Part shown: in pieces, positions 5,871-45,125 of the stretch
How positions within the stretch are numbered: position 1 is the first letter of the stretch
Layout: every line of letters starts with the position of its first letter
DNA from: an uncultured Oscillospiraceae bacterium
GTDB taxonomy: Bacteria > Bacillota > Clostridia > Oscillospirales > Ruminococcaceae
Assembly (NCBI GenBank): GCA_964370845.1
Contig: CAYJLB010000008.1
Coordinates: 552-64,551 of the forward strand
Direction of reading: 5' to 3'
DNA: 64,000 nt
Notes under the pieces: model-generated
Seen by the model: the letters and a program-made list of their open reading frames with translations, nothing else
What the model was told of the DNA's origin: nothing
Database searches by the model: none
Position numbers and translations under genes: made by a program

Positions 5871-6482
5871 TTAGTCAATTCCTTTTACTTTTCGCTTTTT
5901 GAAAAAACTTTTACGATAAATCTCACAAATTCCATGCTCATCTAAAAGTTCGTAATGCAATTTTGTGCCGTAACCCTTATGTTGAGCCAATTTGTACTGT
6001 GGATATTTCTCGTCAAGTTTCTTCATATATCTGTCCCTTGCAACTTTTGCAAGGATTGAAGCCGCCGCAATGCTTTGAGAAGTTCCATCACCTTTAACAA
6101 CAGCTGCCAAAGTGAATTCGGTGTCCTTAGGGCACTTATTTCCGTCGATTAACCCAAGGTTAAAGGAAGAATTTAGCCCCTCCATCGCCCTTTTCATAGC
6201 AAGCAACGACGCGTTTAATATGTTAATTTCGTCAATTTCTTCAACACTAGCGGTAGCAATGCAATATGTCACAGCCTTTTCGATAATTTCATCAAACAAA
6301 AGTTCCCTTTTCTTCTCGGAAATTTTCTTGCTATCATTTATCCCCTCAATAATCAAATCAGGAGGCAAAATCACAGCCGCCGCAAAAACGTCGCCAGCCA
6401 AAGGCCCTCGCCCAGCTTCGTCAACTCCACATATTACAGGGAATTTCTCCCTAACCGCCTTGTCATATTGAAACAATTCCAT
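5871..6482 (-). CDS. rnhB: ribonuclease HII
   Basis: GVDEAGRGPLAGDV active-site motif, 203 aa. Confidence 0.92.
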   Translation of the reverse strand: MELFQYDKAVREKFPVICGVDEAGRGPLAGDVFAAAVILPPDLIIEGINDSKKISEKKRELLFDEIIEKAVTYCIATASVEEIDEINILNASLLAMKRAMEGLNSSFNLGLIDGNKCPKDTEFTLAAVVKGDGTSQSIAAASILAKVARDRYMKKLDEKYPQYKLAQHKGYGTKLHYELLDEHGICEIYRKSFFKKRKVKGID

Positions 6483-7555
6483 TAGCTTTTCCCCTTTTCC
6501 TTTGTAGGGTCAAAATCGGGTTGTTCCAAAGTAATTCTCCCTAGTTTCCCCGCACGGAATTCATCAATAAAAATAATAGCAGTTCTTTCGGTGTTAATTT
6601 CTCCACCAGCGATTAAAAATCCACGTTTGCTACCAATTTTTTCGAGGATAGAAACTCCCGATTCATTTTCCTGCGTTTCAACACCATATCTATCAAAAAT
6701 ATTCTTTTTATAATCAATATTCAAATACTCTAAAAGCCTTACAGCAAGGTATTCAAGGTCCATTATGTCATCTTTTACAGCCCCTGTAAAAGCTAAATGT
6801 TCCCCAACGGTTTTATCCTCAAACTTAGGCCACAAAACACCAGGCATATCAAGTAATTCAAGGTCTTTATCTAAAGTTACCCACTGTTTTCCACGAGTAA
6901 CACCAGGTCTATCCTCAACCTTTGCCCTTTTGGATTTTGCAAGCTTATTTATAAAGGAAGATTTCCCAACATTTGGAATTCCAACAATCATAATTCTAAT
7001 AGGTCGCCCCACCATACCTTTGCGTTCCCAAGATTCAATTTGCACAGAGAGAAGTTCCCTCAAAGCGGTCATAAACTTGTTCACACCCTTACCAGTACGG
7101 CAGTCGGTTGCAATAGCTAAAATTCCTTTATTTTTATAGTAATTAAGCCATTTCGCAGTAACACTTTCATCGGCACTATCAGCTTTATTTAAGATAATAA
7201 TCTTAGGTTTACTCCCCGTCATGCCGTCCATTTCAGGGTTTTTGCTACTAAAAGGAATTCTTGCGTCAATAATTTCAACAATAGCATCAACAAGCCTTAA
7301 ATTCGCATCAATCAAACGCCTAGTTTTCGCCATATGCCCCGGAAACCACTGTATATTATACTGTGAATTTATGTTATCCGCTGGCTTACTTTTATCACGC
7401 TTTTTCTTTTCAGGCTTAACTTTTTCGGTAACTTTATTAGCAGAAGCATTTCTTAAATACTTGTTACTATTTTTATTTCTGTGGCTATTTTTTTTTGCAC
7501 TTTTCGCTTTTTGTGCATCAGTTTTTTTACCAAAATTTTGTCGCTTTTCAGCCAT
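6482..7555 (-). CDS. rbgA: ribosome biogenesis GTPase A (YlqF/RbgA) with a Lys-rich N-terminal extension
   Basis: QWFPGHMAKTRR, then circularly permuted G motifs (NKADSA before GIPNVGKSSFIN). I place the start at ATG 7555 (RBS GAGAGGAA 9 nt upstream) rather than the TTG at 7588. Confidence 0.88.
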   Translation of the reverse strand: MAEKRQNFGKKTDAQKAKSAKKNSHRNKNSNKYLRNASANKVTEKVKPEKKKRDKSKPADNINSQYNIQWFPGHMAKTRRLIDANLRLVDAIVEIIDARIPFSSKNPEMDGMTGSKPKIIILNKADSADESVTAKWLNYYKNKGILAIATDCRTGKGVNKFMTALRELLSVQIESWERKGMVGRPIRIMIVGIPNVGKSSFINKLAKSKRAKVEDRPGVTRGKQWVTLDKDLELLDMPGVLWPKFEDKTVGEHLAFTGAVKDDIMDLEYLAVRLLEYLNIDYKKNIFDRYGVETQENESGVSILEKIGSKRGFLIAGGEINTERTAIIFIDEFRAGKLGRITLEQPDFDPTKEKGKS

Positions 7556-12324: not shown

Positions 12325-12437
12325 AAAACACCATTCCTTTCTGAAACTACTTCTATTAATAAATATTCACTGTAAAAAAATAATATTCTGCCGAAAAATT
12401 GTCCTTTTTGAAAAATACTTTTAATTTATAATTTAGT

Positions 12438-12466
12438 TTGACTTTTTTTGTGAAATTGTTTATAAT
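12438..12466 (+). promoter_or_regulatory. sigma-A type promoter of the lipoprotein/ABC operon
   Basis: TTGACT (12438-12443), 17 nt, TATAAT (12461-12466). Confidence 0.6.
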
Positions 12467-12682
12467 TAAATTTATAATTTATAAATAGTTGTTTTCATTC
12501 GATTTACTTTTCCTGTCATTTTTTGTGGAAAAATAAACGTTGGGTAAAGCGGGAAACTGTTTTGCCTCCCTTTTTTGGAAAGAATGAACTTTTTTTACTG
12601 CTTATGCGGTTTATTTAGGTTGCTTTCTTTTCTTTAAGGAGCAACTTTTTATTTTATTTAAGGAGAAAGGATTGGGCAAAAA
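12467..12682 (+). promoter_or_regulatory. ~210-nt structured 5' leader with terminator-like hairpin (candidate riboswitch/attenuator, class unknown)
   Basis: 8-bp hairpin 12543-12550/12559-12566 with loop GGGAAACT. Stem GTTGCT/AGCAAC (12619-12624/12640-12645) is followed by TTTTTATTTTATTT. The block 12526-12582 is homologous to 18877-18933. Confidence 0.4.
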
Positions 12683-15600
12683 ATGAAAAAATTATTGGCA
12701 TTATTTTTAGCATCGTTTATGTTACTTGCTACCGCTTGTGAAAGTGACGAAAATTCCAAAGAAACGGGAGAAGTTTCACCCGAAATTGAAAAAAGTGTGG
12801 AAATATTCGAAGGAATTGACTTTGAAACTTCCGAATATAAGCACATTACAAATGGCGGAATTACTACAGATGACGTTCTTCCATATGCAATTGACGCAAT
12901 TACTGGAGCAACTGTTACTGTTGAGGGGCCTGCTGTTGACACAAGTATCCCCCTTTCAGTTCGTGAACTTGAAAATAAAAATGAGGGAATTGTCCGCGGA
13001 ATTTACAGCGATTCAACTGGTGAATTTATCTACGAGGGTGTGGATTTATACTATATTATAAACGAAATGACTGACGGAGATAATGGAATTTTCCTCACAG
13101 ATAATGCTTATGCTGTTGAGCTTCGCAACGATGAAAGGGCGACTATTGCAACAATTAAAATAGAAGATATTACTAAAGCCCACGAAAATAATGAGCCTAT
13201 TATCATAGCTTACGGAATTGGAACTGTTGACGGAGAAATTTCTTCTCCTTTTGTTTATGACGGTGAAACGGAGGAAGCTGTTCCTCTTGGATATATTGAG
13301 GAATTGAACAACGATGACGGTTGTTTAAAACTTGTTTTTGACGGAAATAAATATTCAACCGAAAACAATTACACAACTTTCGACAATGTAGCTTATATTT
13401 ACATTCAAGAGGAAGTAACTCCTGGATTTAAGCATACTTTAGCCGACAACGAAAGCTATGATTCTTCCGATTATTTAGACTATATTTTGACAATCCGTGG
13501 TGGAGCGTTAGGACGTGAGTTCACTATGACTTTGGAGGAACTTGAAAACTTAGTTAAATATGATGAAAATAATGACGTAATCGAGGGTGGAATTGGCTTT
13601 AGAGAACGTTATTCCCTAGCTAACAATGCTTATTGGTATGTAAATGAGTATGAGGGACTTGATTTGTACAAAATGCTCACTTATTTAGGTATGAGAACTG
13701 CCGAAGATATGGGGCGAGCAGACTCAAGAAACACTTTAATTAGCTTTATTGCTGCGGACGGACACCCTTCTAACGAAACTTTTTCTGTGGAAACTTTATC
13801 CTATCCCGATGTGTTTGGATTTTATCAAAAAAATGCTTTAGACACTGGGGACGGGTCATATGCACCGTCAAATAGCGACCTTGTTAATTCGGGTTATCCT
13901 GTGTTGCTTGCTTATGGTGTAAACAGCTATCCTTACACAATTTCTACCTTTGATAATGGCTATTTATCAGGTCTTGGAAACAGCGGTGGACCTTTTAGAA
14001 TTGTATTTGGAAAAACTCAATATTACCACGCAAACGGCTCTTATCAAGTTCAATTTGTAAACGAAATTATTGCCGGTGAAAACATTCAATATAACACTCA
14101 CAAATACAGTGATAATGCTGATTATAACGCACTTTCAAACAATACAATTTCCTTAAACATTACAAACTGGAAAGAGGAAACTATTGCAAATGAAAATATT
14201 TCAGTTGGTGAAATTGAAGACATTATTTACGGTGAAAATGTGGACTTTAAAGTTGCTCAAACTGCAAAAGTTAAGGATATTTATGAAGTTGAAGAACTTG
14301 ACATTTATGAGGGAGTTGACCTTGAATATTTCTTAATGGAATATGCAAAAGTTCCTGGAACTGTTGGAACTGTAACTTTCACTTCGGAAAATGGTGAAGT
14401 TTTAACTACCGACATTGACAGAATTTTCGGGCTTGGAAAAAACACTTCCGACGGTGAGGAAGTTAAGGCTGAATTATCTCCTATTTTAGCTTTTGCAAAA
14501 AATGGCTCTCCTTTAGTAATTGACGAAAATTCAGCAGGATATGAGGGAGAAGTTTCCTTAAATCCTTTGTCAGATAGCGACCCTACAACCTATTCTGTAA
14601 ACAATAGCGGAGGACCTTTAGCTGTTATTTTACCAAAAACTACAACTGAAAATGCTGAGTTTTTAGCCAATGTAGTTTCAATAAATGTAACTATCGAAAT
14701 GGACACCTATTCCCACTTAGAAGCTCCTTATGACAGCCTTTCAAAAAGCGAAGTTTCTTTCTACGGTGAGGGTTTAGAAAAAGAAATGACTTACACAGTG
14801 GCGGAAATTGAAGCTATGCAAATTGACGCTAAAACTTATGATTATAGCGTAGTAAACAGCGAAAACGCAAACAGCTACGAAGAACGTTACAGAGGTGTTC
14901 CACTTTACAATATTTTAACGGACATTGGCTTAATGAGTAACGCTGGCGATGTGATTGTTCACTACGGAAATGGGGAAACTAAAACAATTTCTCTTTCATT
15001 ATTAAAAGGGCAAAATTATCAAAACTACATTTCCCCAGATAAAGGGAATATTTCAGCAATGCTGGCTTTTGGAATCGGACAGACTGATGAAACTGCAAAA
15101 TATGGATATCCTCTTGTGCAAGATGAAAATTCTGACGGATTTTTTGGAGAAATCGGCAATTTAGGTGGTCCTTTGAAATTAGTTGTTCCGCAAGAAGATG
15201 AATCCGCTATAAATGGTGAACTTTTCTGTGAAAATGTGACAGCAATTGAAGTTACTGCAAATGATATTCAAACTTGGGGACATGAAATGAGTGACATTTA
15301 TGCTGAATTTTTGGACTACGAATTTGAATTTGTTGTCAAAAATGAAGTACACGAATGGCGAGAAACCTTCACTGTTGCTCAATTAGAAGCGTTAACTGGC
15401 TACATTGTTCGTGATACTTACTCCGTTCTTGAAATTGGAGAGTGCGAGGGTGTTGACATTTGGAACTTTGTAAACTTAATTGCTGGGGAAGTTGAAGGGA
15501 TTGAAAACCCTGTTTCAGTAACAGTTTACGCTGAGGACGGATACAAAAATGACCTACTTTCAACTTATAATTTAGAAGCTCTTGAAGAAGGAGTTCTTGA

Positions 15601-15838
15601 CGCAAATAACGAGAGAAAAGCCTTGATAATTGCATACGCACTGAACGGTTACCCACTTGTTGACAGCGAAAATCACGAGGGTTACACAGGGCTTGCGGGC
15701 AATAGTTCAGGACCTCTTAGAGTTATCGCTGAAAATGTGCAAGGTGCTTCTGTAAAATTATTTAACAAACTTATTGTTACAATTGAGGGCGATGAGGAAA
15801 TCAACATTACAGTTGACGAAAGCATTTTTGAAAAATAA
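12683..15838 (+). CDS. 1051-aa secreted lipoprotein with five tandem sulfite-oxidase/MsrP-like (Oxidored_molyb-like) modules
   Basis: Signal peptide plus a Cys in MKKLLALFLASFMLLATAC. Five ~160-200 aa modules each show Y.GVDL.., a ..(A)Y(A/G).NG.PL.. segment, and GGP(F/L)(R/K/A)(I/L/V)V (nt ~13985, ~14606, ~15165, ~15707; degenerate CLKLVF at ~13320). Fold assignment is by eye. Confidence 0.8.
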   Translation: MKKLLALFLASFMLLATACESDENSKETGEVSPEIEKSVEIFEGIDFETSEYKHITNGGITTDDVLPYAIDAITGATVTVEGPAVDTSIPLSVRELENKNEGIVRGIYSDSTGEFIYEGVDLYYIINEMTDGDNGIFLTDNAYAVELRNDERATIATIKIEDITKAHENNEPIIIAYGIGTVDGEISSPFVYDGETEEAVPLGYIEELNNDDGCLKLVFDGNKYSTENNYTTFDNVAYIYIQEEVTPGFKHTLADNESYDSSDYLDYILTIRGGALGREFTMTLEELENLVKYDENNDVIEGGIGFRERYSLANNAYWYVNEYEGLDLYKMLTYLGMRTAEDMGRADSRNTLISFIAADGHPSNETFSVETLSYPDVFGFYQKNALDTGDGSYAPSNSDLVNSGYPVLLAYGVNSYPYTISTFDNGYLSGLGNSGGPFRIVFGKTQYYHANGSYQVQFVNEIIAGENIQYNTHKYSDNADYNALSNNTISLNITNWKEETIANENISVGEIEDIIYGENVDFKVAQTAKVKDIYEVEELDIYEGVDLEYFLMEYAKVPGTVGTVTFTSENGEVLTTDIDRIFGLGKNTSDGEEVKAELSPILAFAKNGSPLVIDENSAGYEGEVSLNPLSDSDPTTYSVNNSGGPLAVILPKTTTENAEFLANVVSINVTIEMDTYSHLEAPYDSLSKSEVSFYGEGLEKEMTYTVAEIEAMQIDAKTYDYSVVNSENANSYEERYRGVPLYNILTDIGLMSNAGDVIVHYGNGETKTISLSLLKGQNYQNYISPDKGNISAMLAFGIGQTDETAKYGYPLVQDENSDGFFGEIGNLGGPLKLVVPQEDESAINGELFCENVTAIEVTANDIQTWGHEMSDIYAEFLDYEFEFVVKNEVHEWRETFTVAQLEALTGYIVRDTYSVLEIGECEGVDIWNFVNLIAGEVEGIENPVSVTVYAEDGYKNDLLSTYNLEALEEGVLDANNERKALIIAYALNGYPLVDSENHEGYTGLAGNSSGPLRVIAENVQGASVKLFNKLIVTIEGDEEINITVDESIFEK

Positions 15839-15859
15839 ATAGCGAAAAAGGAAGATTAA

Positions 15860-16918
15860 ATGAAAAAAATAATTGCAATTTTACTGGCTTTAACCTTGAC
15901 AATTTCCCTTTCTGCATGCAATAATAAAAAGAATAGTCAAGTGGAAACTTCAGCTACAACTGCCCAAACTACTGCACAAACTTATCCATTTGAAACTGTA
16001 ATCGACGCTTCCGACGACGTTTTGGAAGTGCCAGAGGACAGCGATAATATTACTGTAGCTTCAACTTATGCTGTAGTTGTGCCATTTTTGAAGGCTTTGC
16101 AAATTACTGAAAATGTAGTTGCGATTAATGCTAAAACTAAGTTTTGGACGGACACTGACGGATTTTTGGATAATGCTGGCACTGTAGGACGTGGAGTTGT
16201 TGACCTTGAAGCACTTGCTACTTTTGAACCAACTTTGTTTATAAATCGAGCATTTGACGATAAAACTAAAACTGCTGTGGAAAATCTTGGAATAGAGTAT
16301 ATGGCTGTCCACGCTGAAACAATTGAGGACACTTACAAAACCCTCACTATGCTAGGCGATTATTTCGGAGCGTCCGAGAGAGCAAACGAAGTGATAACTT
16401 ATATGGAAGAAAAATTTGCTGAAATTGCTGAAATTGTCAGTAAAATCCCCGAAGATGAAAAAGTTTCTGCTTTTGTAATGGGAGGGCAACTTGGAAGTGT
16501 TGCTGGGCAAAACTTTTTGCAGTCAGAAATGATTGAGCTTGCTGGAGGAATTTCCCTTGGAAAAGAATATTCCACAAGCGATAGTTGGGCAATGATTGGA
16601 GTGGAGGAAATTTTTGCAAATGACCCTGATTTCCTATTCACAACAGCTTCCACTGTTTTAGATTATTCAATTGAAAAAATTTATGGTGATGACACTTGGG
16701 GAGCATTAAAAGCTGTCCTTAATGAAAATATTTATCAAATTCCAGCGAAAATTCACGCTTGGGATTTACCTGGAGTTGAGCCTGTAATCGGGACTTTTTG
16801 GCTACTTCATAAAATGTACCCTGAATATTTTTCTGCAAATGAATTACAAGCCGAAATTGATGAATATTACACATTTATTTTTGGTGAAACTTTTGACAGC
16901 GAATATTTAGGCTACTAA
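15860..16918 (+). CDS. ABC importer substrate-binding lipoprotein, class III (FecB/BtuF/FhuD-like periplasmic binding protein)
   Basis: Lipobox LSLSAC, 352 aa, placed directly before a FecCD permease and its ATPase. Substrate cannot be deduced. Confidence 0.8.
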   Translation: MKKIIAILLALTLTISLSACNNKKNSQVETSATTAQTTAQTYPFETVIDASDDVLEVPEDSDNITVASTYAVVVPFLKALQITENVVAINAKTKFWTDTDGFLDNAGTVGRGVVDLEALATFEPTLFINRAFDDKTKTAVENLGIEYMAVHAETIEDTYKTLTMLGDYFGASERANEVITYMEEKFAEIAEIVSKIPEDEKVSAFVMGGQLGSVAGQNFLQSEMIELAGGISLGKEYSTSDSWAMIGVEEIFANDPDFLFTTASTVLDYSIEKIYGDDTWGALKAVLNENIYQIPAKIHAWDLPGVEPVIGTFWLLHKMYPEYFSANELQAEIDEYYTFIFGETFDSEYLGY

Positions 16919-16951
16919 ATCAATTAATTTTATTAGAAAGGTAGGGTTTAA

Positions 16952-17980
16952 TTGAAAAGTACAAAAACTAAAATTTCTTTTTGGAAAATAATTGTAATCC
17001 TATCTTTACTTTTGTTGGTTTGCATAGTCCTTGCGGTTTGTGTTGGGAAATTCCCTGTCACTCCCCTTGAAAGCCTTGAAGTTTTGTTTACACAGATTTT
17101 TGGGCAGGAAAACAACCTTTCCGAAATGACAAATAACGTTGTAATGGGGCTTAGAATTCCACGAATTTTAGTAAGCGTTACCGTAGGAGCTGCACTTTCC
17201 GTCGCTGGGGCTTCTTATCAAGGCGTTTTCAAAAACCCGTTAGTTTCCCCCGATTTTCTCGGTGTTTCTGGGGGAGCGTGCATTGGTGCAGCTTTAGCAA
17301 TTGTAATGGCTCTTCCCTATGAATTTACTCAAATTTTCGCATTTTTGGGTGGAATTTTTGCAGTTGCAATCACAATTTCTATTCCTATGGCTTTGAAAAA
17401 TAAAACTAACATTGTTTTGGTTTTATCGGGTGTAATTGTAGGTTCAGCCGCTTCTTCCGTCCTTGGATTTATCAAATATATTGCTGACCCAGAAACTGAA
17501 CTTGCCGCCATAACTTACTGGACAATGGGGAATTTTTCCTATGTTACTTTGGAGGAATTGTTTGTAGTTTTCCCAGCTGTTTTGATTTGTTTAGTGGTGT
17601 TATTCCTTATTTCTTGGCGAATTGACATACTTTCTTTAGGGGAAGATGAGGCGAAAACTCTTGGGATAAACATTACATTTACAAGAAATATCACAATTAT
17701 TTGCTCAACAATTTTAACTGCAACATCTGTTTCACTTTGTGGAACTATCGGTTGGATAGGGCTTGTAATTCCCCACTTTGCACGAATGACAACGGGAGCA
17801 AACCATACTAAATTGCTTCCTGTTTCAGCGTTAATCGGCGGTTTATTTATGCTTTTTATTGACACTTTAACAAGGACAATTGGACCCGAAGAAATGCCAG
17901 TAAGCATTTTAACTGGAATAATTGGCGCACCTTTTTACTTGATTTTACTAATGAAAAATCAAAAAGAAAGGTTGGTGTGA
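16952..17980 (+). CDS. FecCD/BtuC-family ABC importer permease
   Basis: 342 aa, about 9-10 TM segments, conserved GTIGWIGLVIPHFARM segment typical of FecCD. TTG start. Confidence 0.9.
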   Translation: MKSTKTKISFWKIIVILSLLLLVCIVLAVCVGKFPVTPLESLEVLFTQIFGQENNLSEMTNNVVMGLRIPRILVSVTVGAALSVAGASYQGVFKNPLVSPDFLGVSGGACIGAALAIVMALPYEFTQIFAFLGGIFAVAITISIPMALKNKTNIVLVLSGVIVGSAASSVLGFIKYIADPETELAAITYWTMGNFSYVTLEELFVVFPAVLICLVVLFLISWRIDILSLGEDEAKTLGINITFTRNITIICSTILTATSVSLCGTIGWIGLVIPHFARMTTGANHTKLLPVSALIGGLFMLFIDTLTRTIGPEEMPVSILTGIIGAPFYLILLMKNQKERLV

Positions 17981-17985
17981 TTTAA

Positions 17986-18762
17986 ATGATTTTTGAGATA
18001 AAAGACCTTTATTTTGAATATAAAAAAGGAAAACCTATACTTTCCGACTTAAATTTATCATTAAAAGAGGGGGAAATTCTCACTATTTTAGGCCCTAATG
18101 GAGCGGGAAAGTCCACTTTGCTTTCTTTAATGATAAAGCTTTTAAAACCATGTGAGGGGGAAATTTTTCTCGACAGTGAAAATTTAGCCGACTTAAAGGA
18201 AAAAGATATTGCAAAAAAAGTGAGTTTTGTTCCACAAAGTGTTTCCCCTACTTTCAGTTATTCCGTTTTGGATTACGTTTTAATGGGGAGAGCGCCAATG
18301 ATTTCCTATCTTTCAAGACCCTCAAAAGCAGATATTGAATGTGCAAAAACTGCAATTTCTGACATGGAAATTTCCCATCTTTCCGACAAATCTATCCTTG
18401 AAATAAGCGGTGGAGAGAGGCAACTCGCAACCATTGCACGGGCGATTGTACGCAGTCCAAAAGTGATTTTATTTGACGAGCCAACTTCTCACCTTGATTT
18501 CGCTAATCAATTGAAAGTTTTGCGAATTGTGAAAGGTTTATCCGAAAGAGGATTTTCTGTTGTAATCACAACCCACAACCCTGACCACGCTGTGTTACTT
18601 TCCGATAAAACAGCTTTAATTGACCGAAATGGAAACATTATTAGCGGAAAAACTGAGGAAATTCTCACTGAAAATATGCTAAAAAAAGTCTATGACACCG
18701 ACTTAATTTTGCGTTATATTGACGAAATTGGACGTTTTTCCTGCCTTTATCCTAATTTATAA
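17986..18762 (+). CDS. ABC importer ATP-binding protein (FepC/BtuD-like)
   Basis: Walker A GPNGAGKST, signature ISGGERQ, Walker B ILFDEPTSHLD. Confidence 0.92.
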   Translation: MIFEIKDLYFEYKKGKPILSDLNLSLKEGEILTILGPNGAGKSTLLSLMIKLLKPCEGEIFLDSENLADLKEKDIAKKVSFVPQSVSPTFSYSVLDYVLMGRAPMISYLSRPSKADIECAKTAISDMEISHLSDKSILEISGGERQLATIARAIVRSPKVILFDEPTSHLDFANQLKVLRIVKGLSERGFSVVITTHNPDHAVLLSDKTALIDRNGNIISGKTEEILTENMLKKVYDTDLILRYIDEIGRFSCLYPNL

Positions 18763-18772
18763 CAGTTTAAAC

Positions 18773-18801
18773 TTGACAATTTGTTAAAAAAATGATAAAA
18801 T
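18773..18801 (+). promoter_or_regulatory. sigma-A type promoter for the 19066 lipoprotein gene
   Basis: TTGACA (18773-18778), 17 nt, TAAAAT (18796-18801). Confidence 0.55.
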
Positions 18802-19065
18802 CAAATGTAATTAATTTCAATCTATATTTAAATATCTAATTTATATTCCGAATTTATTTTTCTAAGGCTTAACCGCTATGAAAAGTAAATCTGGGTTAAT
18901 TTGGAAACGAATTAACCTTCCATGTTTGAAAAGGGATAAAAACAGCTTCACAAACTGTTGAAGCAATAGCCAATTTATTGGTTTGTTTATAATGCCTTTT
19001 CGCCTAAAAACGAAAAGGTTTTTATATTTTTGAAGAAATTTCTATTTTGAAAGGAACGTATTAAA
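18802..19065 (+). promoter_or_regulatory. ~260-nt structured 5' leader, paralogous to the 12467-12682 leader (candidate riboswitch/attenuator)
   Basis: Hairpin GGTTAATT-TGGAAACG-AATTAACC (18894-18917). A competing TTAACC lies at 18869-18874. Second hairpin at 18945-18964, then an internal intrinsic terminator. Confidence 0.45.
18995..19030 (+). terminator. leader-internal intrinsic terminator
   Basis: CCTTTTCG-CCTAAAAA-CGAAAAGG followed by TTTTTATATTTTT, 36 nt before the start codon. Confidence 0.65.
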
Positions 19066-20121
19066 ATGAAAAAATTATTAGCCCTATTGTTGTCACTTTC
19101 TTTGGTGGTAACTCTTGCCGCTTGTAGCGAGAATGCTCCTGCTGAAACTACTGAAAACACAACAGTTGCTACTGAAGCACAAACTGAAGCTGAAACCACT
19201 GAAGAAACTGAGGGAGAAACCGAAAGCGACAGTACTGAACTTCCTGCTCCTGAAATTAAGGAAGCTGTTGGAGTTACAATCCCTGAATTTTCTGTGAATG
19301 TAAATGGTGTTGACGTGACAAACGTTACTCTTGCTGACCTTGCTTTATATGAAGTTACTGCACACTCAATCAACAGTGCTGGAACTACATCTGTTACAAC
19401 TTACATAGGATTTACTGTTAAAGATATTCTTGCAGCTTCGGGAATTGAAGCTACTGGTGCAATGGTTGTAACTGCTGATGACGGATATGAAATTGAGTAT
19501 TCTGCGGAAGTTGCAAATGCTGATACTACTTTACTTGCTGTTAGCAAAAACGGCGAACAATTCGGAACTGCTCCTTGGCTTGCTCCTTGTTCTGAACAAG
19601 TTACTGGTCAATACTTAAAAAATGCTATAACTATTTCATTTGACGGTGCTGAAAGTGGCACTAGTGATGAAGAACCAGCAGAAGATGCTGATGCTGAAGT
19701 AAGCGAAGTTCCAGCTCCTGAAAAATCAGACAAAACTGCTCAAGTTACATTCTCTGATTACTCATTCTTAATCGATGGAACTCCAATCACAAATGCTACT
19801 TTAGAAGGTTTATCAATTTACAAAGTTGACGCTTCTACTTTAAAAGATGATGCTGTTACAACTTCAACTTACACAGGTTATGTTCTTTCCGACGTTTTAG
19901 CAGCTGCTGGAATTACTGATTTCACTTCAATTGTTGCTGTTGCAAATGACGGTTACGAAGTTGAATATGACAAAGAAACTGCTATGAACGAGTTCACAAT
20001 TGTTGCAATTGAAAAAGACAAAGAACTTGGCGAAGACGGAACAATTTGGATTGCTCCAGCTACTGAAACTGCTGGCAAAATGTACGCAAAATTAGTTGTT
20101 GAACTAAAGATTAATAAATAA
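19066..20121 (+). CDS. 351-aa secreted lipoprotein with two Oxidored_molyb-like modules separated by acidic T/E-rich linkers
   Basis: Lipobox VTLAAC. Two internally similar modules: ..YEVTAHS..YIGFTVKDILAASGI..VTADDGYEIEY..LLAVSKNGEQ.. and ..YKVDAST..YTGYVLSDVLAAAGI..VANDGYEVEY..IVAIEKDKE.. Confidence 0.8.
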   Translation: MKKLLALLLSLSLVVTLAACSENAPAETTENTTVATEAQTEAETTEETEGETESDSTELPAPEIKEAVGVTIPEFSVNVNGVDVTNVTLADLALYEVTAHSINSAGTTSVTTYIGFTVKDILAASGIEATGAMVVTADDGYEIEYSAEVANADTTLLAVSKNGEQFGTAPWLAPCSEQVTGQYLKNAITISFDGAESGTSDEEPAEDADAEVSEVPAPEKSDKTAQVTFSDYSFLIDGTPITNATLEGLSIYKVDASTLKDDAVTTSTYTGYVLSDVLAAAGITDFTSIVAVANDGYEVEYDKETAMNEFTIVAIEKDKELGEDGTIWIAPATETAGKMYAKLVVELKINK

Positions 20122-20133
20122 TAATCAAAAAGG

Positions 20134-20162
20134 AAAAGGGGGATAGTTTTTATCCCCTTTTT
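20134..20162 (+). terminator. intrinsic terminator
   Basis: GGGGGATA-GTTTT-TATCCCC followed by TTTTT. Confidence 0.7.
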
Positions 20163-20195
20163 GCCATATATTTTTATGAAAGGACGAACATTTTT

Positions 20196-20885
20196 ATGAA
20201 AAAACTAATCAAAACTCTTGCAATTATTACCCTTTCTACTTCAATTTTACTCACCTCTTGCCAAAATAGTAACGGGGGACAAACTATTGAAATCCCACTT
20301 CCTTCCCCTGGTGATGATATGTTTGGCGTTGACACAAACATTAATATTGAAACAATTGACAATTATTTAGGCATTGAGGACGTTGTATATGTTGATATGA
20401 GAATGTTTATCGACACTGCAAGGTATGAGGACATTGGCGGTGAATCCGTTTTAACAAAAACTATAGAAGGCTTTAAAATTATACCTTTCCCTTACATTGC
20501 GACAATGGCTGCACTTCCTGTTGAGGGTGCATTTGTGGGCGACACTTTATTTGATGTTGAATGGGGTAATGGCACTGAAATCCTTTCTGTAACGGAAAAT
20601 TATAAGGAGAGTATGCTTATTTTAGATGAACTTTTTCCTAAAGACAAGAAAATTTTCATAATGTGTGGTGGCGCTGGTTATGCGGGAATGACAAGGGCAT
20701 TGCTAATTCACCTCGGTTGGAACGAAGACTTGCTTTATAACGTTGGAGCTGGCTGGTTTTATGACGGAGAAAATGCCCTTGAGCTTGTAAAATTCCCAGA
20801 AGATGCAAATGACCCGAACATATACGCAACTTGGAGAGCGGATTATGCATATTTTGACTTTAATTTAATGACTCCTGTTGCATAA
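20196..20885 (+). CDS. secreted lipoprotein with rhodanese-like domain
   Basis: Lipobox ILLTSC. The pattern VVYVDMR..(~90 aa)..KKIFIMCGGAGYAGMTRALLIHLGWNEDLLYNVGAGWFY matches the rhodanese layout (xxDxR ... C-loop-R ... G(F/W)..V.N..GG). The loop is longer than the canonical one. Confidence 0.55.
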   Translation: MKKLIKTLAIITLSTSILLTSCQNSNGGQTIEIPLPSPGDDMFGVDTNINIETIDNYLGIEDVVYVDMRMFIDTARYEDIGGESVLTKTIEGFKIIPFPYIATMAALPVEGAFVGDTLFDVEWGNGTEILSVTENYKESMLILDELFPKDKKIFIMCGGAGYAGMTRALLIHLGWNEDLLYNVGAGWFYDGENALELVKFPEDANDPNIYATWRADYAYFDFNLMTPVA

Positions 20886-20912
20886 AACATACAGAAAGGA
20901 ATGGGCATTTTT

Positions 20913-21482
20913 ATGAAAAATAAAGGAATTTTGCTTGTTTTAACCCTTGCTTTAGTGCTTTTTACAAGTTGCTCAACTGAGGTTGAAGAAAGTTCTTCAT
21001 TTCCAATTATAAAATTTGACCACTTTTCTTCGGGGGGAGTTTCGGAGGAATACGAGGCTGTTATTTTGTTCGAGCAAAGTAATTCCACCTTTACTTCATA
21101 TCAAGTTGCATTTTTGTCCTGTAACTGCCGTGATGCTTTGGTGAGTTATTTTTCAGTTATGTACGTTGAACTTTTGAACTCAAAGGAAAATGTTGAGGAC
21201 TCGGCAATACGTTCAATAACCTTTGGAAACAATCAAGGTTTATGGGGGGACAGCAATCCAAACTACTATGTTCCCGAGTACACTGAGGAATATTATGATG
21301 AGCATTTTGTGCAAAAGCTTGTAAAAGCTACAAAATCTGACATTGACAGTTGGGCGGGTTACGGCGAGTCTATTGAGCCTATTGGTGTCGATTTAATCGC
21401 TGGTGCAACTGTTTCAACCAGCAATATAACCTCAATGTTACAAAGTTTATTTGAATACCACGAAGAAAACTATTACTCCTAG
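20913..21482 (+). CDS. secreted lipoprotein with FMN_bind-like C-terminal motif
   Basis: Lipobox-like LFTSC. GVDLIAGATVSTSNI (nt 21390-21410 for DLIAGAT) lies ~25 aa from the C-terminus, as in NqrC/RnfG/PplA FMN_bind domains. The start is probably ATG 20913; the ORF opens at 20901. Confidence 0.55.
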   Translation: MKNKGILLVLTLALVLFTSCSTEVEESSSFPIIKFDHFSSGGVSEEYEAVILFEQSNSTFTSYQVAFLSCNCRDALVSYFSVMYVELLNSKENVEDSAIRSITFGNNQGLWGDSNPNYYVPEYTEEYYDEHFVQKLVKATKSDIDSWAGYGESIEPIGVDLIAGATVSTSNITSMLQSLFEYHEENYYS

Positions 21483-21713
21483 ACGGGGAAACCCCGTTGT
21501 TATGCCCGCGTTTTTACATTGCATAATTGGAAAATTTCTGCCCGCGAGGTCGGAATTCGTAGGGCAAGGGCTCTGCTCTAGCCGTTAGTTGCATAAACTA
21601 AAGGTTTTACTCAATTTTTTTCTCAAAAAAATTGCGGGCAACGTGACGTTGCATCCATTCCCGCGTTTTTACGTTGCATAATTGGAAAATTTCTGCCCAC
21701 GAGGTCGGAATTT
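21483..21713 (-). repeat. two units of a GC-rich intergenic repeat family (terminal palindrome GCAACGTGACGTTGC at 21638-21652)
   Basis: The reverse complement aligns by eye with 41384-41609 (agagcagagcccttgc..ccgacctcg.gg..acgtaaaaacgcggg..). It lies between the stop codon at 21482 and the terminator at ~21800. Confidence 0.8.
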
Positions 21714-21796: not shown

Positions 21797-21843
21797 TAAA
21801 AACCAGCAAAAACTATCATTACAATAGTTTTTGCTGGTTTATT
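21797..21843. terminator. bidirectional intrinsic terminator
   Basis: AACCAGCAAAAACTAT-CATTACA-ATAGTTTTTGCTGGTT, flanked by an A-run and a T-run. It serves the convergent operons on either side. Confidence 0.8.
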
Positions 21844-43268: not shown

Positions 43269-45125
43269 TTATAAAGTTTCTGAAAGACCTAGTCTATCTA
43301 AAGTTTCTTTTGTTGGAATTCCAAATTCGTCCCAACCACGAAGCTCATAATATCTGTCAAGCATTCCGTCAACGTCAGGGATATTATTCGCAGAACCACC
43401 TGTCATACGACGTTTTTTCATTCTTCCTGGAAGTTTATCATCTTTTCTTGACTGCCCGTCACGAACTAAATACATTCTCTTTAAGTTGAAAATTCTTTCA
43501 CCAGTTTCCATTAATTCAGCGGCAGTTGTATCCCAACCAGTAATTTGATTTAACCACTCAACCACGCAATCAGCAGTAGCTGAACCCGCTCCAGGAGCGC
43601 CCATTAAGAACTTACATACTGTCAAAGAGTCGCATAAACACATAATATGCTCAAGTTCAACGTTCATTTCAGGTTTATTTTCAGTGGAATGGTTTTTAAG
43701 TTCAACAAATTTGTCACCATAAAATCCAAATCCATCATAAGTTCCACCGTATTCATTACCGTGTGAGTTTGCGGATAAGTGGCAAGCTCCACGAGGGCTT
43801 ACTGCATAAGCAAGTCCAATACTATCAGCGTAACGTGGGTCATGAGCAGGGAAATCCATTCCTCTAACATGTACAGCAAATTCAGGAGCAATTCCTCCTA
43901 AATGTTCAGCAGCAATTCTTGAACCATCGGCTAAAATATCACCAAAATCTTCACGATAAGCGATTTTTCTCAAAATTTCAATCATATCATCGCCTTCGCC
44001 CCAACGAGCTTTACAACCAAGCATTTCTTCGGTAACAAGACCTCTTTCATATGCTTCCATAACAAACCCAACCGCTCCACCAGCACCAATAGTGTCAAGT
44101 CCGTATCTGTTGCACATTTCATTACCCATACAAATAGCTTCATAGCTGTCAATTAACAAGTTTGAACCCAAAAGTCCCACTGTTTCGTATTCAGGACCAG
44201 CAGTTTCCTGAGATTTATATTTACCCTCTTTAACTTCAACAACTCGTCCACATCTAATTGAACAGTTTGCACAAGAATAACGCCCTGTCAAAAGGTTTGC
44301 GTTAAGGTAAGGCGTTGCAATTCCTTCAGTGTCAAAGCTTCCCTGTGCCCAGTTTTTGATTGGCAAGTCACCGATTTCCTCAATAAAAGGTACAGCACCA
44401 GAAGTTCCGCCCTCTCTCATACCTTCCATATTTTTCATGATAACAGGCGCCCATTTTCTAACGGAAGCATTAAATTCGTCAGGTTTTGCAACAGGAGTAT
44501 CAACATCACCGTCAACAACAATCGCTTTAAGTAATTTTGAACCCATAACAGCACCAACACCGCATCTACCCGCAGTTCGCCCGTCATTTCCGTCATTCAT
44601 AATACAAGAAATTAGCGACAAGTTCTCACCAGCAACACCAATACTTGCAGTACAAGAACGTTTTCCGTGGTCAGCTCTTAAAATATCGTCAACTTCAAAA
44701 GTATCTTTTCCCCAAAGGTGAGCCGCATCTAAAATTTCGATTTTTCCGTTAACAATGTTTAAATAAACAGGTTTTGGAGATTTACCAGTGATAATTAGCC
44801 CATCAAAGCCAGCTTTCTTAATTCTAACTCCCCATTTACCGCCCGAATTAGCCTCACCATAAGAACCAGTAAGTGGTGAACGTGTAACAACTTGATAACG
44901 TCCGCCGTTTGGAGTTTTTGTCCCCTCAACAGGTCCTGTCAAGAAAATTAGTGGGTTTTCAGGGCCAAGTGGGTCCGTTTCAGAAGTTGTTTCATCATAC
45001 AAAATTCTTGCACCAAGTCCACTTCCTCCGATATATTTCCTCATAACTTCTTCACTATAAAAAGTGTTTTCCATCTTACCTGTAGTAAGGTCAATTCGCA
45101 TTATTTTGCCTAAGTATCCGTACAT
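43269..45125 (-). CDS. aor: aldehyde:ferredoxin oxidoreductase family (tungstopterin) enzyme
   Basis: 618 aa, N-terminus MYGYLGKIMRIDLTTGK.. typical of AFOR_N, and Cys-containing 4Fe-4S ligand segments (CANCSIRCGR). Confidence 0.88.
   Translation of the reverse strand: MYGYLGKIMRIDLTTGKMENTFYSEEVMRKYIGGSGLGARILYDETTSETDPLGPENPLIFLTGPVEGTKTPNGGRYQVVTRSPLTGSYGEANSGGKWGVRIKKAGFDGLIITGKSPKPVYLNIVNGKIEILDAAHLWGKDTFEVDDILRADHGKRSCTASIGVAGENLSLISCIMNDGNDGRTAGRCGVGAVMGSKLLKAIVVDGDVDTPVAKPDEFNASVRKWAPVIMKNMEGMREGGTSGAVPFIEEIGDLPIKNWAQGSFDTEGIATPYLNANLLTGRYSCANCSIRCGRVVEVKEGKYKSQETAGPEYETVGLLGSNLLIDSYEAICMGNEMCNRYGLDTIGAGGAVGFVMEAYERGLVTEEMLGCKARWGEGDDMIEILRKIAYREDFGDILADGSRIAAEHLGGIAPEFAVHVRGMDFPAHDPRYADSIGLAYAVSPRGACHLSANSHGNEYGGTYDGFGFYGDKFVELKNHSTENKPEMNVELEHIMCLCDSLTVCKFLMGAPGAGSATADCVVEWLNQITGWDTTAAELMETGERIFNLKRMYLVRDGQSRKDDKLPGRMKKRRMTGGSANNIPDVDGMLDRYYELRGWDEFGIPTKETLDRLGLSETL

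Follow-up and report, generated by a model that had tools for sequence, protein, structure and literature searches.

A clostridial FecCD-type importer locus with surface lipoproteins and two Moco/Wco riboswitches, a probable tungsten/molybdenum acquisition system

Surface-anchored, multi-module binding proteins placed ahead of a type-II importer and its substrate-binding protein (SBP) are found in the Isd system of Gram-positive bacteria, where NEAT receptors and IsdEF handle haem, and in the BtuG/BtuH proteins of Bacteroides, which handle B12. MolBC-A (HI1470/HI1471/HI1472) of Haemophilus influenzae is a type-II ABC importer of molybdate and tungstate (PMC4031551). The canonical importers of these anions, TupABC, ModABC and WtpABC, are of type I with another SBP fold, and are often under the control of Moco/Wco riboswitches, whose P3-less members have been proposed as sensors of the tungsten cofactor (PMC2408646). 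PruR is a periplasmic pterin-binding protein (PDB 7kou, 7kom, 7rkb, 7kp2; PMC11194511), a single-domain signalling partner of the c-di-GMP enzyme DcpA, described in Proteobacteria only. Extracytosolic electron-transfer proteins flavinylated by ApbE, such as PplA and other FMN_bind proteins, are surveyed in two studies (PMC8238504, PMC11334425), neither of which mentions Mo, W, FecCD or rhodanese partners.

The locus described here shares features with each of these systems. It lies in a 64,000-nucleotide stretch of DNA from an uncultured Oscillospiraceae bacterium, referred to as the window. A preliminary description had placed seven co-oriented genes in it, and these were recovered as plus-strand open reading frames, g1 to g7, at the same coordinates. 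They are arranged in two transcription units, starting with g1 and g5, each with a Moco/Wco riboswitch ahead:

12438-12466, plus strand: promoter-like site of unit 1 (TTGACT, 17 nt spacer, TATAAT; 11 of 12 consensus positions, a consensus match only)
12485-12601, plus strand: Moco/Wco riboswitch aptamer 1 (RF01055; 61.5 bits, E 2.5e-12), P3 stem missing
12617-12660, plus strand: expression platform 1, terminator hairpin and U-run, predicted OFF switch
12683-15838, plus strand: g1, 1051-aa lipoprotein with N-terminal flavinylation motif and five Cys-less SUOX-fold modules
15860-16918, plus strand: g2, class-III substrate-binding lipoprotein (PF01497)
16952-17980, plus strand: g3, FecCD-family type-II permease (PF01032)
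17986-18762, plus strand: g4, ABC ATPase (PF00005)
18773-18801, plus strand: promoter-like site of unit 2 (TTGACA, 17 nt spacer, TAAAAT, TG extension; 11 of 12 consensus positions)
18834-18951, plus strand: Moco/Wco riboswitch aptamer 2 (RF01055; 77.1 bits, E 6.3e-17), P3 stem missing
18994-19030, plus strand: expression platform 2, intrinsic terminator GCCUUUUCG...CGAAAAGGU and U-run (hairpin 18994-19019)
19066-20121, plus strand: g5, 351-aa lipoprotein with two Cys-less SUOX/PruR-like modules (about 62-196 and 217-351)
20139-20164, plus strand: hairpin and T-run in the g5/g6 gap, possible partial terminator
20196-20885, plus strand: g6, 229-aa lipoprotein with divergent rhodanese-like domain
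20901-21482, plus strand: g7, 193-aa FMN_bind-like lipoprotein with C-terminal flavinylation motif
21800-21840, no strand assigned: predicted bidirectional terminator hairpin closing the locus
43269-45125, minus strand: aldehyde:ferredoxin oxidoreductase (AFOR), tungstoenzyme family (AFOR_N 6.6e-78, AFOR_C 1.3e-126), a likely cofactor consumer

Both aptamers exceed the RF01055 gathering score of 36 bits, and a covariance model built here gives them 89.4 (aptamer 1) and 89.7 bits (aptamer 2). P3 is deleted in both, in aptamer 1 at model positions 58-72, and from their sequences the leaders are Moco/Wco riboswitches of the proposed tungsten-cofactor type. In an alignment of 30 aptamer hits, compensatory changes occur in 23 of 29 pairs, against 0 of 500 shuffles, and in slid controls pairing falls to 36-48%. 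In the folds of 12570-12660 and 12600-12660, the 5' half of terminator 1 can alternatively pair with the GGAAAGAA segment on the 3' side of the aptamer. At the second platform, the 5' half of terminator 2 is predicted to pair with the aptamer GAAAAGG once the aptamer is unfolded; both platforms are predicted to be OFF switches of the terminator/antiterminator type. The preliminary description had sought a cobalamin riboswitch only, missing both Moco/Wco riboswitches, and its absence was upheld: an Rfam search at permissive thresholds found neither this nor any further family at the locus. The promoter, leader and terminator attributed to g5 also stand, given the promoter-like site, the terminator and the 3' hairpin with T-run, except that the leader is corrected to a Moco/Wco riboswitch.

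For the ABC core, all three anticipated Pfam matches were obtained (PF01497 6.6e-22 for g2, PF01032 2.3e-87 for g3, PF00005 1.9e-31 for g4). Among solved structures, g3 is closest to MolB HI1471 (220.6 bits; HmuU 173, BtuC 130) and g4 to MolC HI1470 (151.9 bits; FhuC 128), and the g2 family profile finds MolA HI_1472 as its best characterised PDB match (87 bits, full length; Ni-CeuE 75, IsdE 46, BtuF 41). These sequence comparisons place g2-g4 in a type-II clade in which MolBC-A is the only characterised member, and not among the TupABC, ModABC and WtpABC importers. The likeness to MolBC-A covers the FecCD-fold permease, the ATPase, the class-III SBP and the link to Mo/W supply; unlike the cassette, MolBC-A is Gram-negative, has no surface accessory proteins and is not known to carry a Moco riboswitch. 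As MolA is a low-affinity oxyanion binder, and the three PDB entries nearer to g2 than MolA (4hn9, 4ovk, 4pag) are uncharacterised, clade membership does not fix the substrate. The statement that the locus maps onto no characterised system goes too far where the ABC core is concerned, since this part maps to MolBC-A, but holds for the accessory proteins.

Inspection of g1, g2, g5, g6 and g7 shows signal peptides ending in a lipobox-type Cys, invariant across the g5 and g6 families, in keeping with the proposal that all five non-membrane, non-ATPase proteins are lipoproteins and that the locus sets surface lipoproteins beside a FecCD/BtuCD-class importer. Five modules in g1 and two in g5 had been read as degenerate sulfite-oxidase-fold units. 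Against the PF00174 cut-off of 24 bits, g5 matches in two stretches (38 bits), as expected, and g1 in one stretch only (26.2 bits) instead of five; the count of five and two is nevertheless confirmed, because internal profile searches recover five g1 modules (71-241, 265-462, 504-670, 680-862 and 893-1035; with the profile of module D, E-values range from 1e-10 to 1e-13) and the AlphaFold model of g5 contains two, both confident. The reading of the fold is supported by Pfam and by Foldseek, and that of degeneracy by the missing Mo-ligating Cys, whose position is variable and never Cys in the aligned modules (a weak alignment, hhalign E 0.12). The top fold match of g5 is YedY/MsrP, and PruR fits its modules about as well as the SUOX-fold enzymes do (Foldseek probability 1.0; TM 0.5-0.61 when normalised to full PruR chains, among them the neopterin complex 7rkb); the structure search thus led to no unrelated characterised family, PruR being a Cys-less branch of the same fold.

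Like PruR, the modules are secreted SUOX-fold units without a Mo-ligating Cys and of similar size (about 135 aa; matched PruR chains 134-149 residues). They keep the Y/W-x-G-F and G-x-P-type motifs of the SUOX family, and those of g5 an invariant D-G-Y and an invariant Trp, which may be the counterparts of the Tyr and Trp that sandwich the pterin in PruR. Unlike PruR, they are arranged in tandem, are lipid-anchored, are linked to both an ABC importer and a Moco/Wco riboswitch, and have kept a long beta-hairpin tipped by N-S-x-G; any binding of pterin by them is putative. With the SUOX-family molybdoenzymes (YedY/MsrP, 1xdq; SorA, 2ca4; PF00174) they share the fold and above-cut-off Pfam scores, but they have no canonical Cys ligand, no catalytic partner domains and no Tat signal, the signal peptides being of Sec/lipoprotein type without a twin-arginine motif, and they are repeated.

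The PF00581 match predicted for g6 was not obtained in Pfam and NCBIfam searches. Its rhodanese-like nature is upheld by the top Foldseek matches of its model, almost all rhodaneses, and by its family profile, which extends to proteins that carry genuine PF00581 domains; as modelled, g6 is a divergent rhodanese-like protein, with an invariant Cys157 within an F-x-M-C-G-G-x-G-Y loop. Strong homologs of g6 occur as fusions with surface domains of the SLH and Big_2 kind. For g7 the expected PF04205 match is itself sub-threshold (0.016), although 22 of 23 family members match FMN_bind. The announced flavinylation-motif protein is confirmed by a conserved ApbE-type motif at the g7 C-terminus (D-x-x-x-G-A-T-V-S-T-S-N), besides which g7 has an invariant S-C-x-C-R-D, and a second conserved motif was found at the g1 N-terminus (DAITGATVT, residues 70-78; Thr77 invariant in 31/31 homologs). 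These motifs are of the [S/T]GA[S/T] type known from secreted ApbE-flavinylated lipoproteins, and an ApbE gene lies directly 3' of g7 in two loci (L021 and L038); unlike in established FMN_bind proteins, g7 is sub-threshold and a very short stub carries the g1 site.

Conservation across Clostridia, a point that the preliminary description had left to be checked, holds for both the cassette and its riboswitch: the cassette recurs at 62 loci in species-representative genomes, and most complete loci keep the gene order. Its carriers are gut and digester Clostridia. In 24 loci the aptamer precedes the first cassette gene by 14-254 nt, in every case on the same strand as the cassette, and it is absent from 21 of the 33 long-form loci. 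In short-form cassettes (g2-g3-g4-g5), g5 strictly accompanies the importer. Recurrent neighbours are AFOR, ThiS/MoaD, ThiF/MoeB, MOSC, XdhC, MoaA and MoaE; the AFOR family adjoins the cassette in 11 other loci besides the one in the window, and MoaD and ThiF adjoin short-form cassettes. The company of AFOR and moa/moe genes, together with the upstream P3-less Moco RNA, is shared with TupABC, ModABC and WtpABC. In L067, a riboswitch-controlled operon joins a single-module g5 homolog to TupA- and TupB-like genes, MoaE, MoaA, MoaB and MoeA. No ModA-like match was found near any cassette.

The reading favoured here, with a probability of roughly 0.55, takes the locus for a system that acquires tungsten/molybdenum to serve the molybdopterin-cofactor pathway, is repressed when the cofactor is sufficient and most likely supplies metal for tungsten enzymes. 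Its accessory proteins g1, g5, g6 and g7 are best read as a new surface capture and redox layer; no such system was found described in the literature searched, in agreement with the earlier view of the gene combination. Among the ligands first considered, only a pterin or Mo/W species fits, and ferric siderophore, corrinoid and haem do not, owing to the riboswitches on both units and in 24 loci, the tungsten-enzyme and cofactor neighbours and the MolBC-A-like core. The current model proposes that low tungsten cofactor would let both riboswitches read through, and that g5, the importer's obligatory partner, and g1 would then bind a scarce W/Mo species at the cell surface, within the cleft where SUOX enzymes carry their metal-pterin. 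The optional trio g1/g6/g7 would use covalent flavins and reactive thiols (g6 Cys157, g7 CxC) to convert non-importable species into free oxyanion, candidates being thio-tungstate or thio-molybdate of sulfidic guts, organic chelates and metal still bound to pterin; the conversion of thiometalates and chelates is one that we purely infer. The oxyanion would be passed by g2 to g3/g4 and imported, and its metal would be built into molybdopterin to equip enzymes such as AFOR. Against this reading, we know of no precedent for surface capture proteins serving freely diffusing oxyanions, such proteins normally serving bulky cofactors like haem and B12, and the 21 long-form loci without riboswitch also count against it. 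So does the module fold, which is a pterin-binding one matched equally well by PruR, and the large L060-L066 operons contain a cofactor chaperone of XdhC type as well as a surface metallophosphoesterase (Metallophos), both of which suit the handling of a cofactor better than that of an oxyanion.

These last points are those on which a salvage of pterin cofactors, itself unlikely, would draw. The PruR-like modules would catch molybdopterin, Moco/Wco or cPMP, a stable precursor, outside the cell, where other microbes or the diet would provide them, the flavinylated proteins and the g6 thiol would keep the pterin/dithiolene reduced, and the type-II importer would carry the organic cofactor as such into the cell, just as BtuFCD carries B12. 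The PruR match extends to the missing Cys and perhaps to the retained D-G-Y and Trp, bulky cofactors are typically taken up through multi-module surface receptors, and the MoaD/ThiF genes beside short-form cassettes would still be required if cPMP were imported; how pterins pass membranes is unknown according to a 2026 review (PMC13259868). However, g2, g3 and g4 are all nearest to a small-oxyanion importer and not to BtuCD or haem importers, de novo cofactor genes (MoaA, MoaE, MoaB, MoeA) lie nearby in L064-L067, a g5-type module also accompanies the TupABC-like tungstate transporter of L067, and the pocket of PruR is reportedly too short to hold Moco. Free Moco is, moreover, chemically labile.

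It is quite improbable that g1, g5 or both are genuine oxidoreductases outside the cytosol (of MsrP/YedY type, or a reductase of a new kind), fed with electrons through the flavinylated g7 and g1 N-terminus, with the importer merely co-regulated. The above-cut-off PF00174 scores, the YedY/MsrP fold match and the flavinylated electron-transfer partners would suit such enzymes, but the Mo-ligating position is not Cys, cofactor-loaded SUOX enzymes are exported folded and the signals here are Sec/lipoprotein ones, the modules are PruR-sized and repeated five and two times, and short-form cassettes tie g5 to the importer. Genes of cofactor-using enzymes, too, can follow Moco riboswitches (PMC2408646), and in L037 a second riboswitch lies ahead of genes resembling FDH, MobA and FdhD (judged by eye); yet an OFF switch under abundant cofactor has the wrong sign for an enzyme requiring it. 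An ordinary FecCD/BtuCD-class importer of iron chelates, haem or corrinoids, joined by unusual accessory lipoproteins, is the least credible explanation. Such ligands are what the PF01497/PF01032 families mostly import, IsdE is among the best NCBIfam matches of g2 (9.8e-15, far under the IsdE cut-off), and corrinoid methyltransferase genes lie upstream in L001. Nevertheless, a Pfam search of the seven proteins found no NEAT or other haem-binding domains, bearing out the earlier remark on NEAT, and the cobalamin riboswitch is missing; Isd and BtuG/BtuH, for their part, resemble the locus in architecture but have unrelated binding folds, different ligands and no flavinylated or rhodanese-like partners. 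The riboswitch class and the recurrent neighbours are Mo/W-specific, and IsdE, BtuF and siderophore SBPs rank well under MolA for the g2 family, as BtuC and HmuU rank under MolB for g3.

The seven co-oriented genes g1 to g7 are read here, with a probability of roughly 0.55, as a cofactor-repressed system for W/Mo acquisition, for which we infer both ligand and chemistry. All are + strand open reading frames with exactly the coordinates assigned to them in the preliminary description, and the ABC core predicted there is borne out by Pfam, which finds a FecCD-fold permease, an ABC ATPase and a class-III SBP encoded together in g2-g4. The features of the window are as follows.

12438-12466, promoter-like site
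12683-15838, + strand, g1, five-module lipoprotein, 1051 aa
15860-16918, + strand, g2, class-III SBP, PF01497 (6.6e-22)
16952-17980, + strand, g3, FecCD permease, PF01032 (2.3e-87)
17986-18762, + strand, g4, ABC ATPase, PF00005 (1.9e-31)
18773-18801, promoter-like site
18994-19019, terminator-like hairpin
19066-20121, + strand, g5, two-module lipoprotein, 351 aa, with a terminator-like hairpin 3' of it
20196-20885, + strand, g6, rhodanese-like lipoprotein, 229 aa
20901-21482, + strand, g7, FMN_bind-like lipoprotein, 193 aa
21800-21840, terminator-like hairpin
43269-45125, - strand, aldehyde:ferredoxin oxidoreductase (AFOR) gene, stand-alone among the housekeeping genes TsaD, GNAT and DNA polymerase I

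A lipobox-type Cys closes the short signal peptide of all five non-membrane, non-ATPase proteins, as had been described, and family alignments show this residue to be invariant across the g5 and g6 families. The untranslated tail from g7 to the bidirectional terminator holds a 56-nt direct repeat (21502-21557 and 21657-21712), unique within the window, whose copies are 95% identical and lie 155 nt apart.

The long leaders of g1 and g5, whose identity the preliminary description had missed, are Moco/Wco riboswitch aptamers (RF01055). Under the Rfam covariance model, with a gathering score of 36, aptamer 1 (12485-12601, before g1) reaches 61.5 bits and aptamer 2 (18834-18951, before g5) 77.1 bits; no other Rfam match anywhere in the 64-kb window exceeds its gathering score, and permissive thresholds return nothing else credible there. 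Both aptamers lack model positions 58-72, which form the P3 stem. Regulski et al. described P3 as missing from 58 of 176 Moco RNAs, and the P3-less RNAs, whose occurrence matches that of tungsten-cofactor ('Tuco') metabolism almost perfectly, were proposed as Tuco sensors (PMC2408646). Lacking P3 and having an AFOR gene in the window, both aptamers classify on sequence with the P3-less 'Tuco' subclass, whose sensing of Tuco is a proposal. In the folds of both leaders, the conserved 3' GAAAGG segment of the aptamer is able to pair with the 5' half of the downstream terminator hairpin, and the terminator with its U-run forms once this segment is excluded from the fold. Because these two pairings are alternatives in both leaders, their architecture is predicted to be that of a ligand-triggered transcriptional OFF switch.

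A cassette-specific covariance model, built from five aptamers, gave 30 matches in 26 sources, all on the cassette strand, and in 24 loci 14-254 nt separate the 3' end of the aptamer from the first cassette gene downstream. The aptamer of locus L004 and both copies in L014 were independently confirmed by Rfam. In the aptamer alignment, which had itself been fitted to the covariance model, compensatory changes occur in 23 of 29 pairs (0 of 500 shuffles), and paired cells amount to 90.6%, compared with 36-48% in slid controls. The riboswitch is present in 12 of 33 loci of the long form (g1-g7) as against 10 of 11 of the short form (g2-g3-g4-g5). Of the long-form loci, 21 have no riboswitch; a core-motif search upstream of them revealed no missed aptamers, and four of them give no Rfam match at permissive threshold. 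Locus L059 carries tandem riboswitches 5' of g1 (6443-6553 and 6635-6759), and L037 has an extra one after g7 (12356-12460), followed by genes that by eye resemble formate dehydrogenase (FdhA), MobA and FdhD.

By sequence comparison, the importer encoded by g2-g4 has MolB/MolC/MolA as nearer relatives than the systems for haem, siderophores or B12. The nearest solved structure to g3 is HI1471 (MolB), with 220.6 bits versus 173 for HmuU, 170 for FhuB, 149 for BhuU and 130 for BtuC, and that to g4 is HI1470 (MolC), with 151.9 bits versus 128 for FhuC. A g2 family profile of 15 sequences, searched against PDB sequences, has MolA (HI_1472) as its best characterised match (87 bits over the full length), above the H. 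pylori Ni-chelate binder CeuE (75 bits), IsdE (46) and BtuF (41). Three uncharacterised structural-genomics SBPs outrank MolA (4hn9, 156 bits; 4ovk, 129; 4pag, 94) and might provide templates for analysis of the g2 ligand site. MolBC-A is a type-II importer of molybdate/tungstate (PMC4031551).

The sulfite-oxidase (SUOX) fold earlier proposed for the modules of g1 and g5 is upheld by Pfam matches above cut-off and by Foldseek. With a cut-off of 24 bits, PF00174 (Oxidored_molyb) matches g5 in two stretches (38 bits) and g1 in one (26.2 bits, a narrow pass), so that Pfam alone yields 1 + 2 stretches of the 5 + 2 modules that had been counted; the full count is recovered by internal profiles and by the g5 model. 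A profile of module D detects g1 modules at residues 71-241, 265-462, 504-670, 680-862 and 893-1035 (E 1e-10 to 1e-13), the g1 modules are mutually detectable by profiles built from each, and the AlphaFold model of g5 comprises two well-predicted modules with disordered linkers between them. Whole-protein and single-module profiles of g5 found only spurious matches among PDB sequences (designed 'Cake' proteins and a PSI subunit), and fold comparison was therefore needed. The g5 modules match YedY/MsrP (1xdq, 1xdy) and SorA (2ca4), with probability 1.0 to 1xdq and 2ca4, and equally the structures of PruR (7kom, 7kou, 7rkb with neopterin, 7kp2), with E 1e-4 to 7e-4, probability 1.0 and TM 0.5-0.61 normalised to PruR.

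PruR is a Cys-less secreted SUOX-fold protein in which a pterin is sandwiched by a conserved Tyr (N-x-Y) and Trp and a P-W motif stands in for the Cys (PMC11194511), and it has been reported from Proteobacteria alone, as the partner of DcpA (PMC11194511; PMC13259868). The modules are likewise secreted SUOX-fold units, of roughly 135-170 aa, without the Mo-ligating Cys, but no DcpA-type GGDEF/EAL gene is found next to any cassette examined. D-G-Y and one Trp, which may be the counterparts of PruR Y104 and W160 but have no sequence bridge to them, are invariant in every module. Both g5 modules share G, D, D-G-Y, A, W and A-P as invariant residues, together with a near-invariant Asn at the hairpin tip. 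The tip of this long beta-hairpin carries N-S-x-G, whereas in SUOX enzymes the Mo-ligating Cys sits on the hairpin. An hhalign comparison of the module profile with E. coli MsrP, weak (E 0.12), topologically sensible and used solely to locate the Cys position, places the Mo-ligating Cys of MsrP at a variable, non-Cys column and its W-I-G-F opposite the invariant Y-x-G-F of the modules.

Two of the surface proteins are predicted to be flavinylated. The FMN_bind call made for g7 finds backing in its family, 22 of 23 homologs matching PF04205 weakly (best 2.5e-5), while the window protein itself stays below the cut-off (16.3 bits against 22). The C-terminal motif of g7 is D-A-V-[T/S/A]-G-A-[T/S]-V-S-T-S-N, with the [T/S/A]-G-A-[T/S] core in 38/38 homologs, and that of g1 is D-A-I-T-[G/S]-A-T-x-T, with Thr77 in 31/31; both fit the [S/T]GA[S/T] motif of ApbE targets (PMC11334425). 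S-C-x-C-R-D (g7 residues 73-78), also invariant in 38/38 homologs, suggests a redox-active or metal-binding dithiol beside the flavin site. The g7 profile has no match among PDB sequences. No ApbE/Ftp gene was found within the 64-kb window; in two Peptococcaceae MAGs a homolog (E 1e-37 to 1e-40) lies directly 3' of g7 (L021, 3005-3799; L038, 5955-6707). Two published flavinylation surveys make no mention of Mo, W, FecCD or rhodanese partners.

The rhodanese-like assignment of g6 stands by fold and by a profile bridge to PF00581 proteins, without the expected match of g6 itself to PF00581 or to any other Pfam or NCBIfam family. The family counts 734 matches in a 90%-identity collection, and none of the g6 homologs among the matches listed has a Pfam domain. 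Foldseek matches of the g6 model (pLDDT 73, medium confidence) are almost all rhodaneses (among the top ones 1e0c, probability 0.99, E 8.8e-3, and 3iwh, TM 0.63). Cys157, directly after the central strand (152-156), is invariant in the family and opens a glycine-rich loop, C-G-G-(G/A)-G-Y, without basic residues, whereas the canonical rhodanese active-site loop consists of six residues and is cationic; sulfur transfer by g6 is putative. An exhaustive profile search gave 322 representatives and reached PF00581 proteins at E 1e-17 to 1e-28, with bona fide PF00581 domains in the weaker matches. Strong homologs (P0243, P0244, P0247, P0263 and P0277) are fused to SLH x3, Cu_amine_oxidN1, Big_2 or PAP2, from which it appears that the g6-type module is also displayed at the surface by other anchoring strategies. 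Together, the PF00581-bearing matches and these fusions support the rhodanese relationship and the surface location of g6.

The gene neighbourhood, whose conservation across Clostridia had been raised in the preliminary description, recurs at 62 loci in species-representative genomes, nearly all Clostridia and mostly from animal guts and digesters; carriers include Oscillospiraceae, Flavonifractor, Acutalibacteraceae, Christensenella sp. MSJ-20, Lachnospiraceae, Peptococcaceae, Tissierellia and others. At least 229 proteins, at about 45-55% identity, make up the g5 family; most of them are unnamed, those with a source name are without exception called hypothetical proteins, and the neighbourhoods of diverged homologs keep the same seven-gene order. 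A tblastn map distinguishes the long form (roughly 35 loci), the short form (11 loci), two loci with g1, g5, g6 and g7 and without local permease or ATPase (L014, L034) and large rearranged operons (L060-L066); g1, g6 and g7 are present or missing as a set, and g5 consistently accompanies the importer. The rearranged operons L064 (2236-20191), L060, L065 and L066 are riboswitch-led and of about 16 kb, with two tandem g2 paralogs and a third SBP, two permease/ATPase sets, two unassigned lipoproteins, a single-module g5, XdhC, a metallophosphoesterase lipoprotein of the cell surface and a radical SAM enzyme resembling AmmeMemoRadiSam. These are followed by a protein of 386-399 aa without family match and then by g6, g7 and g1, and a second riboswitch sits after g1, before MoaA.

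Recurrent neighbours, whose identities were confirmed with Pfam or NCBIfam, include AFOR near the cassette in 12 sources, the window among them (where no riboswitch precedes the AFOR gene in the Rfam search of the 64 kb), ThiF/MoeB-like proteins in 12 loci, and ThiS/MoaD, MOSC, XdhC, MoaA, MoaE, MoaB and MoeA. A P-loop NTPase of about 174 aa (PF03266 NTPase_1, 1.5e-26) adjoins the cassette in 24 loci, in most cases immediately 3' of the last gene (for example L051, 12288-12812; L006, 5262-5909), and might serve in the cytosol as a handling or insertion factor. The window lacks this gene, and no remnant of it was found after g7. In L067 (1567-8747), a P3-less riboswitch precedes a TupA-like SBP (2.9e-38) with an N-terminal extension of about 150 aa and a TupB-like permease (2e-34), both scoring below the equivalog cut-offs, and the operon continues with an ATPase, a SAM methyltransferase, a single-module g5-type lipoprotein, MoaE, MoaA, MoaB and MoeA. 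Because of these recurrent neighbours and the riboswitch operons of L037 and L067, the cassette is, as judged from gene context, part of a W/Mo-cofactor regulon.

The preferred reading proposes that scarce W/Mo species would be captured at the surface by g5 and g1, that the optional flavin/thiol trio g1, g6 and g7 would turn thio-, chelated or pterin-bound metal into an importable oxyanion, and that the MolBC-like core (g2-g4) would import it. The chief alternative is that a pterin cofactor or a precursor would be salvaged. It is favoured by the PruR-like fold of the modules, by the receptor-like architecture and by two kinds of gene within the L060-L066 operons, XdhC and the surface metallophosphoesterase, but is unlikely in view of the MolBC-like ABC core, the de novo biosynthesis genes nearby and the TupABC-linked g5 homolog. 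A further and more radical reading, given a low probability, is that the cassette would represent the first bacterial W/Mo acquisition from the pterin cofactor pool, by salvage or piracy: the seven PruR-like modules would capture extracellular Moco/Wco, MPT or cPMP from neighbours or diet, and either the whole pterin would be imported or the flavin/rhodanese-thiol layer would oxidatively strip the metal and pass the oxyanion to the MolBC-like importer. If true, this would be a W/Mo analogue of haem or B12 piracy, with new extracellular redox chemistry.

Cofactor-preloaded SUOX enzymes are expected to be exported via a Tat signal, and they differ from the modules in having this route and the conserved Mo-ligating Cys. 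The short Sec-type lipoprotein signals of the module proteins have no twin-arginine motif and the Cys position is non-Cys in the weak MsrP alignment (E 0.12), which makes a true extracytosolic molybdoenzyme very improbable despite the shared fold. Uptake of Fe, haem or B12 deserves still less credence: the core is nearest MolBC-A, and the locus has none of the Isd/NEAT haem and BtuFCD corrinoid traits, namely NEAT domains, a cobalamin riboswitch or a BtuF-like SBP.

Anaerobes of guts and digesters depend on W and Mo enzymes (AFOR, formate dehydrogenases and others) for fermentation and for the detoxification of aldehydes, and to our knowledge W/Mo uptake is known solely through Mod/Tup/Wtp and the poorly understood MolBC-A. 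The ABC core and its riboswitch are of already known kinds. No description of the accessory layer or of the whole gene combination was found in the searchable literature, and Regulski et al. mention, for the P3-less regulons, no more than 'genes of unknown function' and a predicted 'MPT oxidoreductase' (PMC2408646). The cassette is widespread, occurring in 62 species-representative genomes, and its metagenomic homologs, all unnamed, number in the hundreds. It would add, for Gram-positives, a MolBC-type importer with a riboswitch of the tungsten-cofactor type, the first physiological context for Cys-less SUOX/PruR-like modules beyond Proteobacteria, an orphan surface rhodanese-like family and two classes of predicted ApbE substrate not listed before. 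Its existence suggests that in sulfidic, chelator-rich habitats W/Mo acquisition requires extracellular capture and redox chemistry, which can be put to a direct test in Christensenella sp. MSJ-20, a carrier of the cassette that is listed as a named strain and whose genome is complete. The 30 P3-less aptamers on one operon type also form a clean set for riboswitch work.

Six long-form cassettes without a Moco riboswitch have in common an invariant CGGUGGACGAGCC, 100-300 nt 5' of the g1 homolog (L011, ~1593; L012, ~3775; L031, ~3781; L033, ~3690; L040, ~3697; L056, ~1244). It is placed in a hairpin that has no matching Rfam family and whose closing stem covaries (GAGAG/CUCUC, AAAGG/CCUUU, CAAAU/AUUUG), and terminator-like hairpins come after it. 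The element might serve this operon as another kind of leader RNA or as a site bound by protein.
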